Below are positions 17,627 through 23,084 of a DNA stretch of 64,000 bases, one piece after another. The DNA is from a virus (lineage: Duplodnaviria; Caudoviricetes): IMG/VR virus record IMGVR_UViG_3300022719_000071, positions 288,001-352,000 of that record, one strand, 5' to 3'. Position 1 is the first letter of the stretch, and each line of letters starts with the position of its first letter. Both the position numbers and the translations under genes were made by a program. The notes beneath the pieces were generated by a model. The model was not told the origin of the DNA. It saw nothing but the letters and a program-made list of their open reading frames with translations, and ran no database searches.

Positions 17627-17965
17627 ATGAGCACTGAAAACGAAAATTTAGATGATGACGGATCCCTGGTAGTGGATCGTCCACCGGCAGAAGAGCGCAA
17701 GGATCTTGCGCCCCCGCCGAAGTACGCAGTAATGCTACTAAACGACGACTTCACTCCGATGGACTTCGTAATGGCAGTCCTCGTGAAATTCTTCTCGAAG
17801 TCTCAAGAGGAGGCTGAGAAGATCACCATGGAGGTACACGAGAAGGGGGAGGGGTTGGCCGGTATCTTCCCGAAGGATATCGCAGAGACCAAGGCGTCTC
17901 AGGTGTGTCACATTGCGCAGTCCAATGGACATCCGTTTAGGGCCGACGTGAAAGGTCTCCACTAA
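17627..17965 (+). CDS. clpS: ATP-dependent Clp protease adaptor ClpS
   Basis: YAVMLLNDDFTPMDFV...FSKSQEEA...MEVHEKG...AETK...HPFR. Confidence 0.95.
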   Translation: MSTENENLDDDGSLVVDRPPAEERKDLAPPPKYAVMLLNDDFTPMDFVMAVLVKFFSKSQEEAEKITMEVHEKGEGLAGIFPKDIAETKASQVCHIAQSNGHPFRADVKGLH

Positions 17966-17970
17966 ACCTA

Positions 17971-18001
17971 TTGACTTTACGGAGAACCTGCCCTATATAA
18001 T
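17971..18001 (+). promoter_or_regulatory. sigma70-type promoter for the ro60 leader RNA
   Basis: TTGACT-N17-TATATA overlapping TATAAT (17996-18001); predicted +1 near G18008. Confidence 0.8.
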
Positions 18002-18007
18002 ACACAA

Positions 18008-18164
18008 GACCTGGGTCGAAGCTGTTTCGTTATCGTAATTGGTACATTAAAAGCGGAACAGCAGAACCTTATCCGGGGCTTAATTTTTGAAGGCTGCGAG
18101 CCGAACGACAGATCATTATCGTTCATGTATAAACGGCGAGATGGTTCGATTCCATCATAGGTCT
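18008..18164 (+). ncRNA. Y-RNA-like, tRNA-mimic non-coding RNA upstream of ro60
   Basis: GUCGAAG (18015-21) Ro-motif; helix 18021-29/18054-62; T-arm GAUGG-UUCGAUU-CCAUC (18140-56); acceptor-like 18008-13/18158-63. Confidence 0.75.
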
Positions 18165-18213
18165 GGCGACACGTTAAAATTGGTCTGGCACCAACTTGTT
18201 CGCAACCAAGAAG

Positions 18214-18255
18214 AAAAAGCCCGGAGGGGACGCCCAGCGCCCCTCCGGGCTTTTT
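18214..18255 (+). terminator. intrinsic terminator between the ncRNA and ro60
   Basis: AAAAAGCCCGGAGGGG / CCCCTCCGGGCTTTTT, 16-bp stem ending in U-tract. Confidence 0.9.
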
Positions 18256-18299
18256 CGTTTCTACAACATACCCGATTGGACATCGGGGAGGAATACATC

Positions 18300-20084
18300 A
18301 TGGCAAACTACGCAAGAATTTCGGGCAAGACCCGTCGAAACACTCATCAGACTTCACAGACGAAGGCAATCCCTGGTCGTGAAATCGAGATGAAGAAAAA
18401 TCCGGCTGGAGGCGTGAGCTTCAAGTTGGACGACTTCGCTCGTCTACAGCGATTCATCATCCTCGGAGTTGAGGGGAACAGCTACTACCAGAGTCAGAAG
18501 ACCCTGGTGAATCAGAACGTGAGTTCTCTGGAGCGCTGTCTGGACGCTGATCCGTTCCGTGTCATTGACATGGTTGTGGACATTAGTGTGAACGGTCGTG
18601 CCTTCAAGCAGGACGCTGGACTCTTCGTGTTAGCTGCTGCCGCTTCTTTCAAGGGTGGCGTGCGCTCCGGTCGCAAGAGCCCGCCGAACCGCAATCGATT
18701 CCAGTACGAGGAGAACTACCAGCAGGCTCTAGCCGAGTATGAGGCTTCCATCGTCATCGTGGACGAGGAGCACGCAGTCAAGGTTCGTCAGTACGCACTG
18801 GAGAAGCTGCCACAGGTGGCTCGTACCGGTACGGCGCTGTACACGTTCGCTGAGTTTGTACGTGGTCAGCGTGGATTCGGTCGCAGCCTGCGTCGTGCAT
18901 TCGCAAAGTGGATGACTGACAAGCCGCTAGACAAGCTGGCCTATCAGGCATGGAAGTACAAGAGCCGTAACGGCTGGACGTACCGTGACATCATGCGCCT
19001 CACGCACCCGGTAACAGACGAGCGTGCACGTTCAGACGTGTTCGGATATATGGTGAAGGGACAGCTACCGGAAGGTGCTGACCTGAGCAACCCGGCCCTG
19101 GCACAGATCGATGCGGCTGAAAAGCTGCTGAAGATCATGACCAACCGTACTAACGTGACCAAGCCGGTCGTCAAGGAAGCTGTCAAGCTCATCGTTGACC
19201 ATCGCCTGACTCACGAGGCTGTTCCGTCCGAGCTTCGCAAGAGCCCAGAGGTTTGGGAGGCTCTGCTGGAGAACATGCCGCTTCAGGCTGCTGTCAGCAA
19301 CCTGGGTGTCATGACCAGCACTGGTCTGGTCAAGCCACTGTCGAAGGCAGAGCGAAAGATCGTGGAGATGCTTACCAACGTCGAAGCAATCAAGCGTTCT
19401 CGCATGCACCCGATGCGGTTCTACCTTGGTTCCAAGGTCTACGGCAATGGTCGTGGCGTGAAGGGTAGCCTGTCCTGGTCGCCAAGCCAGAACATCATGG
19501 ACGCTCTGGATGGTGCGTACTACGCATCCTTCGGTAACGTCGAGACGACTGGCAAGACACTGGTCATCGCTGTCGATGACTCGGGTTCTATGGACTGGGC
19601 TAACACTTCGGTTCCGAACACTAGTCCATCGGAGATTGCTGCGGCAATGGCGCTGGTCACGTACCGCACTGAGCCGAACAGCGTGCTGATCGGTTATTCT
19701 GATGGTGTTCGTGAGATGAAGGTGTCTCGTACACGTTCTCGCATCGACAGCATCATGAAGCATGTCGGTCATGGCGGTGGAACCAACACCACACTCCCGG
19801 TGCAGTACGCCTGGAACAACAAGCTGGACGTTGATGGCATCGTGTCCTACACAGACAACAACACCTGGGGCGCATGCTCTCGGGGCTGGAACAGTAATGG
19901 ACATGTTACCCAGTGGGTGAATAAGTACGTGGATCGCTTCGGTCCAATGCGCTTCATCAACTGTGCGATGGAGGCAAACAGTATCACTGATACTGATGCC
20001 AAGAATCCGTACATGTTCGAGCTTGTCGGTGTTGACGCCAATACCCCACGCATCATTAGCGAGTTCCTTGCTGGTAACCTGTAA
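18300..20084 (+). CDS. rsr: Ro60/TROVE-domain RNA-binding protein with vWA domain (594 aa)
   Basis: NPAGGVSF...RLQRFIILGVEGNSYY; KYKSRNGWTYRDIMRLTHP; RMHPM; MIDAS VDDSGSM; GGGAGG SD before ATG 18300. Confidence 0.93.
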   Translation: MANYARISGKTRRNTHQTSQTKAIPGREIEMKKNPAGGVSFKLDDFARLQRFIILGVEGNSYYQSQKTLVNQNVSSLERCLDADPFRVIDMVVDISVNGRAFKQDAGLFVLAAAASFKGGVRSGRKSPPNRNRFQYEENYQQALAEYEASIVIVDEEHAVKVRQYALEKLPQVARTGTALYTFAEFVRGQRGFGRSLRRAFAKWMTDKPLDKLAYQAWKYKSRNGWTYRDIMRLTHPVTDERARSDVFGYMVKGQLPEGADLSNPALAQIDAAEKLLKIMTNRTNVTKPVVKEAVKLIVDHRLTHEAVPSELRKSPEVWEALLENMPLQAAVSNLGVMTSTGLVKPLSKAERKIVEMLTNVEAIKRSRMHPMRFYLGSKVYGNGRGVKGSLSWSPSQNIMDALDGAYYASFGNVETTGKTLVIAVDDSGSMDWANTSVPNTSPSEIAAAMALVTYRTEPNSVLIGYSDGVREMKVSRTRSRIDSIMKHVGHGGGTNTTLPVQYAWNNKLDVDGIVSYTDNNTWGACSRGWNSNGHVTQWVNKYVDRFGPMRFINCAMEANSITDTDAKNPYMFELVGVDANTPRIISEFLAGNL

Positions 20085-22169: not shown

Positions 22170-23084
22170 ATGACAATTAGAACTTACCTACCTGCTTTTG
22201 GATTGGGCATGCTGCTCCTTACGGCTTTATCCTTAGCAACAATAGCCGCATATCAAAGTATCATAGGTCTAGCAGACCTTTTCGCTGCACGTAAAGAAGT
22301 CGTTGTAATCATGGCTGTCTTTATCGAATGGGCGAAATTGCTATTTGCCGGTTCACTTCATATGTTTTGGAATTCACTTCCCTGGTGGAAGTGGATTGGT
22401 ATAGCTATTGTGGTTATCCATATGGCGGTAACCAATATCGGAATTTACTCCTACCTGTCTTCTGGCTATCTTCTCCAGGAAGCTCCTGTAGCGGCTCTAG
22501 AGCGGCGCATCACTGGGATTGACCAGGACATCAACCAACAGAAGAAAATCGAAGAGGAAGCATCCAGGCAAATCTCAGCTATGGATACAGCCTACCAGCG
22601 GTACGTTGAGGGGCTATACATCCGTCGTGCTGAACAATACAAAGCTACTAATGCAGAATTACGTGCACAGTTGGAAAAGCAACGTGATAAGGCCAGAATG
22701 GTAATTGATGGTCTTGAAGAAAAGAAGCGTGGTCTAACAGAAATTAAGGTTGATAATGCTGCCAAGCTGGGTAGCATTGAGCACATCTCTGCTTTTATTG
22801 GGTCTGACCAAGAGAGCATCATGAAGATGGTTGTTCTGTTCACTATCTTGCTTATGATGGGTCTTGATCCTGCGGCTGTTCTGTTGGTCGTAATGTTCAC
22901 TCATTTATTAAATAAATGGATGGGGGTTAAAAATCCAAAACCGGTTTTAGAAGTGGCTGAGAAGGCCAAAGAAGAGCCTAAGCCACTGGATAAAAAAGCT
23001 GAAGAGCAAGCTTACCAACAACATTTGAAGGACATTGGATACATGGAAGGATCTCCTGGGTGGTACCGTAGAAAGAAGCTATGA
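22170..23084 (+). CDS. membrane protein with long coiled coil
   Basis: Three N-terminal TM helices, coiled coil, C-terminal TM with DPAAVLL. Confidence 0.75.
   Translation: MTIRTYLPAFGLGMLLLTALSLATIAAYQSIIGLADLFAARKEVVVIMAVFIEWAKLLFAGSLHMFWNSLPWWKWIGIAIVVIHMAVTNIGIYSYLSSGYLLQEAPVAALERRITGIDQDINQQKKIEEEASRQISAMDTAYQRYVEGLYIRRAEQYKATNAELRAQLEKQRDKARMVIDGLEEKKRGLTEIKVDNAAKLGSIEHISAFIGSDQESIMKMVVLFTILLMMGLDPAAVLLVVMFTHLLNKWMGVKNPKPVLEVAEKAKEEPKPLDKKAEEQAYQQHLKDIGYMEGSPGWYRRKKL

Follow-up and report, generated by a model that had tools for sequence, protein, structure and literature searches.

What kind of RNA does a phage place directly ahead of its Ro60 gene, and how is that RNA folded? The question arises at a locus in a 64,000-nucleotide stretch of DNA, hereafter the window, which covers bases 288001-352000 of the 360,469-bp Caudoviricetes record IMGVR_UViG_3300022719_000071. 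A first-pass annotation of this DNA described a phage Ro60 paired with a hybrid of Y RNA and tRNA whose topology appeared to be new, with an acceptor-like stem closing the ends of the RNA and the Ro60-binding helix in the position of the D-arm. We find that a partner resembling both a Y RNA and a tRNA is indeed encoded directly upstream of the phage Ro60, on a promoter of its own. The new topology does not hold up against 12 homologous RNAs, each lying ahead of a related Ro60 gene; covariation across these leaders does not support ends closed by an acceptor stem and supports a two-module model instead. The best explanation is a phage Ro60-Y RNA cassette of a known kind, in which one predicted transcript of ~250 nt (about 18006-18255) carries two Y-RNA modules. 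We put the probability of this explanation, taken jointly over the cassette, the transcript, its modules and the function proposed below, at roughly 0.8. The features of the locus are as follows.

17971-18001, + strand: sigma70-type promoter, read from the sequence; -35 TTGACT at 17971-76, -10 either TATATA at 17994-99 or TATAAT at 17996-18001
18006-18016, + strand: 5' leader and GGGU, forming the 5' side of helix P0, by which unit A is closed (RNAalifold, covariation cells)
18013-18069, + strand: unit A, a plain Y-type stem-loop with GUCGAAG at 18015-21, a stem of 18021-29 with 18054-62 and UUAUCGU at 18030-36 (the upper stem keeps its pairing)
18071-18081, + strand: linker AUCCGGGGCUU, which in folds pairs with the leader (P0, with U18070) or with the 5' arm of the terminator
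18092-18107, + strand: 5' strand of the unit B lower stem, GG.UGCGAGC, then GCCGAACG (GNCGAANG, 18100-07) (P1 covariation)
18109-18122, + strand: 5' strand of the unit B upper stem, CAGAUCA at 18109-15, then UUAUCGU at 18116-22 (P2 covariation)
18120-18135, + strand: variable hairpin before the T-arm, placed by eye from alignments
18140-18156, + strand: T-arm GAUGG-UUCGAUU-CCAUC (covariation)
18161-18170, + strand: D-like hairpin GUC-UGGC-GAC, with no acceptor hairpin between it and the T-arm (homologue comparison)
18181-18207, + strand: 3' strands of unit B, namely P2' UGGUCUG at 18181-87, the loop GCACCAACUU, P1' GUUCGC at 18198-18203, then.CC (covariation)
18214-18255, + strand: intrinsic terminator, 16-bp stem and U-tract, basal part AAGCCCGG/CCGGGCUU (Rfam look-alikes, folds, RNAalifold)
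18271-18293, + strand: small hairpin, then the Shine-Dalgarno sequence GGAGGA (from the sequence)
18300-20084, + strand: Ro60 gene, 594 amino acids, TROVE and vWA_Ro60 (Pfam profiles, structure relatives)

The open reading frame at 18300-20084 matches the Pfam profiles TROVE (2e-27) and vWA_Ro60 (1.4e-27), and its closest solved structures are Rsr of Deinococcus radiodurans (2NVO, 9e-76) and animal Ro60. Judged by these matches it is a true Ro60, as had been claimed. The Y RNA region at 18006-18255 lies on the same strand, its end separated by 44 nt from the start of Ro60 (18300); the corresponding distance from terminator to ATG is 29 nt in the relative L010. The sigma70 promoter of the first-pass annotation is likewise present in the sequence; both of its boxes, with a spacer of 17 for TATATA or 19 for TATAAT, are conserved in 10 close homologues. 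A consensus promoter scanner did not have the site at 17971-18001 among those that it listed.

Comparison of the RNA depended on relatives that were reached through the protein. Megablast and blastn searches of the locus against phage records found no relative, a pattern scan of IMG/VR gave 0 matches, and a protein scan of IMG/VR returned only relatives about 35 % identical, with upstream RNAs of other types. A large protein collection held Ro60 proteins 44-78 % identical to that of the window. From the contigs of these related Ro60s and from a metagenome pattern scan we compiled 12 homologous upstream regions (L010-L016, L018, L020, L022, L024 and L026); counts of 13 include the window. One metagenome pattern match (L017) was discarded as a GC-rich false positive, and upstream of a Ro60 that is 44 % identical (L025) no recognisable Y module was found. 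The promoter boxes, the RNA and the terminator are conserved, with a mean column identity of 70 % among the five closest sequences, in non-coding DNA.

Across the stems of unit B and the T-arm, 90.7 % of the cells in a MAFFT alignment are paired, compared with 27-44 % when the partners are slid, and nine pairs have changed on both sides. In the model-guided alignment of all 13 sequences, both sides have changed in 17 of 28 pairs; shuffles give 6.2, and none of 500 reaches 17. RNAalifold, supplied with no structure, recovered helix P0 between leader and linker, the stem of unit A, P1 (lengthened by 3 bp), P2 and the terminator; neither of the two disputed stems of the earlier drawing was in its output. 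For the window's own sequence the comparative model lies only 2.7 kcal/mol above the minimum-free-energy fold.

Homologues hardly differ in the second GNCGAA motif, GCCGAACG at 18100-07. Its nucleotides had been assigned to a second arm and turn out to be the 5' strand of a second GNCGAA module; of the pairings drawn for that arm, GCCG/CGGC is formed in 47 % of cells and AACGA/UCGUU in 79 %, with no change on both sides. P1 pairs GCGAGC (18096-18101) with GUUCGC (18198-18203) and shows double changes to GUGAGC/GUUCAC in L012, UUGAGC/GUUCAA in L022 and CCGGGC/GUCCGG in L024. P2 pairs CAGAUCA (18109-15) with UGGUCUG (18181-87), and five of its seven pairs have changed on both sides, with variants such as CAAAUC/GGUUUG (L010), AAUGG/CCAUU (L022) and UCAGG/CCUGA (L024). 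The T-arm at 18140-56, with its UUCGAnU loop, stands as first described, four of its five pairs having changed on both sides. The variable hairpin at 18120-35 occurs in six of the 13 relatives, with compensatory versions UUGU/ACAA and UUGA/UCAA, and a hairpin at the D-like position occurs in 13 of 13, its loop carrying GG in nearly all. By sequence and covariation, unit B resembles YrlA: its Ro-type stem, in two parts separated by the internal loop GCCGAACG / CACCAACUU, encloses the T-arm and the D-like hairpin, and the order of the arms is the published permuted order of YrlA. The Ro helix is not in the place of a D-arm, as had been proposed.

Unit A, as its sequence reads, is a plain stem-loop with a CGAA internal loop and a UUAUC loop, closed by the 5' leader and the linker. 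The GNCGAA helix of the earlier description is real: GUCGAAG is found at 18015-21 and the upper stem (18021-29 with 18054-62) covaries, its sequence changing while pairing is kept in all homologues. The lower stem drawn for it, GGGU/ACCU, is paired in 77 % of cells and has no covariation. We rejected this lower stem; the leader:linker helix replaces it. RNAalifold predicts the 7-bp core of P0 (18010-16 with 18070-76) with no broken cells, and 59 of the 60 core-pair cells show pairing, with one pair varying between A-U, G-U and C-G.

Several points weigh against this two-module interpretation. The sequences are related, so independent substitutions are few, and the structure was used in fitting the model-guided alignment (A6). 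In the window the D-like stem is just 3 bp long (GUC-UGGC-GAC), and the transcript is a predicted one. The Rfam model of YrlA has no match in the window even at E <= 10, and close relatives miss it too.

The other Rfam results are also negative. At gathering thresholds no family was assigned to the window and the YrlA gathering score of 69 bits was not reached; at E <= 10 the region 17950-18320 gave terminator look-alikes only. The connection to YrlA is made by the relatives. L026 is a single-unit relative with GGGUCGAAC, UUAUCGU, a T-arm, an acceptor hairpin, a D-arm and the matching 3' strand. A model built from unit B (R1) detects L026, which was outside its seed, with a score of 43.6 bits; it also recovers the site of a sub-threshold Rfam match to YrlA, L006:1722-1851, and finds and aligns the YrlA of mycobacteriophage Sparky. 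In addition, ACUUG of the unit B 3' strand is present in the Rfam YrlA consensus. YrlA, with the motif GNCGAAN0-1G, adjoins Ro60 in the genomes of 254 bacteria and 22 phages (Chen et al. 2014, PMC4201824), and Thermus phage phiLo has two Y-like RNAs upstream of Ro60 that bind Ro60 and form a complex with host PNPase (PMC12135203). Because of the matches between L026 and R1, the survey of Chen et al. and the precedent of phiLo, we regard the locus as a variant of the known YrlA kind.

Both modules share GNCGAA, a UUAUC immediately after the 5' strand of the upper stem and a CAACUU-type 3' strand or loop. The same arrangement of UUAUC and CAACUU-type sequence is found in L001, L004, Sparky and FuzzBuster; that it recurs in every module examined from phages of the clade, as well as in two actinophages, points to a partner surface held in common. 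In the loops of vertebrate Y RNAs and of nematode sbRNAs UUAUC is a conserved motif (PMC4726728), CACCAACUUG in the unit B 3' strand is identical to the nematode sbRNA consensus, and L026 weakly matches the sbRNA family RF01656 (E 0.022, far below threshold). According to the same review, bacterial Y RNAs are not homologous to vertebrate ones (PMC4726728). A protein surface in common, and not descent, may account for the motifs shared with metazoan Y RNAs.

Tandem modules occur elsewhere. Microbacterium phage FuzzBuster has three in its Ro60 leader (L029:2180-2475), the last abutting the Ro60 ribosome-binding site, and Mycobacterium phage Sparky has two (L028:2090-2310), in both cases with GGUUAUC or GGUUACC motifs. 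The region L022:1430-1930 holds two plain Y modules and a tRNA-Ser(GCU) with CCA (Rfam 59.8 bits), followed by the pair of unit A and unit B.

The homologues differ in their tRNA-like domain. In 9 of the 13 a closed acceptor hairpin of 6-8 bp abuts the T stem and is followed by the small hairpin, which is the T/acceptor/D order of YrlA; the window, L010, L011 and L018 have the small hairpin only. In the Ro60 tree L018 is sister to L014 (100/100 support), which keeps the acceptor hairpin, and the hairpin has therefore been lost at least twice. This metagenomic phage clade has a YrlA-like module without the acceptor hairpin in some of its members, and the repeated loss suggests that the hairpin is dispensable for the role of the T/D domain with Ro60. 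In L013, L015, L016 and L020 the 7-bp acceptor hairpin has a loop whose first letters are GCCA or ACCA, a discriminator plus CCA. A cut within such a loop could therefore produce an RNA that ends like a tRNA in CCA, which is what has been reported for YrlA of Mycobacterium smegmatis (PMC4201824).

How might the cassette work? In the mechanism that we propose, the sigma70-type promoter would drive a ~250-nt RNA that stops at the intrinsic terminator 44 nt before the Ro60 start. Each module would bind the phage Ro60 through its GNCGAA stem, and the resulting ribonucleoprotein, modelled on that of phiLo, might recruit a host 3'-5' exonuclease such as PNPase. The Ro60 mRNA would arise through read-through of the terminator.

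The terminator may be more than an end point. Its basal 8 bp (AAGCCCGG/CCGGGCUU) are invariant in 10 close relatives, while its top varies. A promoter scan between the terminator and the Ro60 ATG found no promoter-like site, and because there is no room for a promoter ahead of Ro60 an attenuator is plausible. The linker would then compete between the leader, in which case the terminator forms, and the terminator 5' arm, in which case it acts as antiterminator, and so set the level of read-through. In nascent-RNA folds of the 12 tandem sequences the linker pairs every time with the 5' arm of the terminator (gain 2.8-11.8 kcal/mol); blocking this arm leaves it paired with the leader in 11 of the 12. 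The mutually exclusive pairings 1:2, 2:3 and 3:4 were found by folding only, with 2:3 in 12/12 and 1:2 in 11/12. Four pairs of linker helix 1 have changed on both sides, and L022 and L024 have different but matching triplets, which are compensatory versions. The folding models thus make it plausible that the RNA also acts as a switchable terminator ahead of Ro60. If so, a Y RNA would control the synthesis of its own protein, for which a limited literature search found no report.

A more specific version, in which the two-module Y RNA would at the same time be an attenuator that senses protein, we consider doubtful. In this model Ro60 bound to unit A would lock the leader:linker helix, the terminator would form and free Y RNA would be released; when Ro60 is scarce the linker would pair with the terminator 5' arm, extend the unit B stem and allow read-through into Ro60. 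Ro60 and its RNA would in this way be kept in balance. Against attenuation of either kind, the linker necessarily resembles the terminator 3' arm, L022 may have a separate Ro60 promoter, and the full-length RNA favours the terminator by ~12 kcal/mol. Any attenuator effect must therefore be co-transcriptional.

The same alternative pairings lend themselves to another reading, in which the region is a cis-acting leader that controls Ro60 transcription only and yields no stable trans-acting Y RNA. Its position between promoter and Ro60, the presence of a terminator and the lack of a separate Ro60 promoter all fit. Such a leader would have no need of a T-arm or a D-like hairpin for attenuation, however, and its modules are homologous to free Y RNAs, as indicated by the R1 matches, by PMC4201824 and by PMC12135203. 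The tRNA array, distant from Ro60, contains a third module that has this handle. We consider the leader-only reading improbable and retain the two-module Y RNA.

The remaining rival keeps the acceptor-closed drawing for this phage alone: after loss of the hairpin, the 5' leader (18007-13) and 18157-63 would have formed a new end-closing acceptor-like stem. The stem has 6-7 bp, belongs to the minimum-free-energy fold and is located exactly where the relatives have their acceptor hairpin, and other phages (L001, L002) do carry tRNA-shaped Y chimeras whose acceptor ends are genuine. The single-sequence fold of 18008-18166 reproduces the earlier drawing, with a weak z of -1.9. The complementarity GACCUG/UAGGUC (18008-13/18158-63) amounts to -9.7 kcal/mol in the window, a value that 5-9 % of shuffled leaders equal. 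It is found only in this phage and is absent from the RNAalifold consensus; in L010, L011 and L018, which likewise lack the hairpin, the stem is not conserved and the corresponding leader pairing is no better than in shuffles. It would compete both with the D-like hairpin of all 13 homologues and with P0, and a start 7 nt after the -10 box leaves the leaders of the relatives without the required bases. Taken together, these observations make the acceptor-closed fold very improbable, and the two-module fold is preferred. A single-sequence fold can evidently mislead, as the best fold of the window RNA differs from the conserved one. The proposed tRNA decoy role against anticodon nucleases has no support because the RNA has no anticodon arm; this absence and that of a CCA end, both seen by the first-pass annotation along with letters that are all present in the sequence, agree with ARAGORN, which finds 0 tRNA genes in the window, and with the absence of an Rfam tRNA match.

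RNAs of the kind first proposed were seen outside this window. L001:2749-2868 and L002:2669-2797 are tRNA-shaped RNAs (Rfam tRNA 44.9 and 51.1 bits) directly upstream of Ro60, in which a 7-bp acceptor stem truly closes the ends and the anticodon loop is replaced by a 61-nt hairpin with an inverted Y module, in L001 CAACUUACC - loop - GGGUCGAU...UUACC.

The gene order around the RNA is kept in relatives: ClpP, ClpS, sometimes NAD kinase, then the RNA, then Ro60. In the window ClpS lies at 17627-17965, directly upstream of the Y RNA promoter. An RNA-repair context was considered and rejected, as the neighbouring ClpS, amidoligase-like and FMN-reductase-like proteins give none.

ARAGORN called 42 tRNAs in the whole genome, among them one with anticodon CUA (called Pyl) at 22700-22777 on the complementary strand and one with an 8-nt anticodon loop at 277334-277409; a permuted tmRNA call at 78941-79376 is doubtful. 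Some 10.4 kb ahead of the window, with tRNA-Phe and tRNA-Lys on either side, the same genome encodes a third Y-like RNA (L031:1502-1635, that is G000:C1:277490-277623; R1 29.6 bits, E 8e-5; fold z = -3.1). In it the handle of unit A (CAUGGGUCGAU ... CUUAUCCGUG) is combined with a hairpin carrying UUAUC, a T-arm whose loop reads UUAGAGU and a closed acceptor hairpin of 7 bp; its tRNA-like part is on the 3' side of the internal loop, not atop the upper stem.

Among known systems the locus is most usefully set beside the YrlA and YrlB RNAs of Salmonella, M. smegmatis and mycobacteriophages (RF02553; PMC4201824), which likewise lie beside Ro60 on the same strand, within 4 kb. Shared with YrlA are GNCGAAN0-1G on the 5' strand of the closing stem (GCCGAACG in unit B, GUCGAAG in unit A), a Ro-type stem that closes a permuted tRNA-like domain with the T-arm before the D-arm, and a 3' strand that contains ACUUG; like the YrlA/YrlB pair, the phage locus also has a simpler second Y RNA alongside. 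The phage RNA differs in that it has no closed acceptor hairpin, its D-arm is reduced to 3 bp and a UGGC loop, and it lies below any Rfam score. Moreover, the plain unit comes first and the YrlA-like unit second, and both lie on one promoter-to-terminator unit upstream of Ro60.

Yrl1 and Yrl2 of phiLo resemble the present pair as two Y-like RNAs with CGAA motifs directly upstream of a phage Ro60, although as described they are of a stem-bulge-stem form, with no tRNA-like domain or terminator switch reported in the available part of their description (PMC12135203). Metazoan Y RNAs and nematode sbRNAs (PMC4726728; RF01656) share the strands of the Ro site, GNCGAA and CA(A/C)CUUG, and UUAUC right after the 5' strand of the upper stem, whereas the phage RNAs carry a tRNA-like domain. 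Yrn1 of D. radiodurans is, as cited in PMC4201824 and PMC4726728, a Y RNA upstream of rsr that tethers Ro60 to PNPase in the complex called RYPER; by the description given there, its T and D arms have another orientation than those of the phage RNA.

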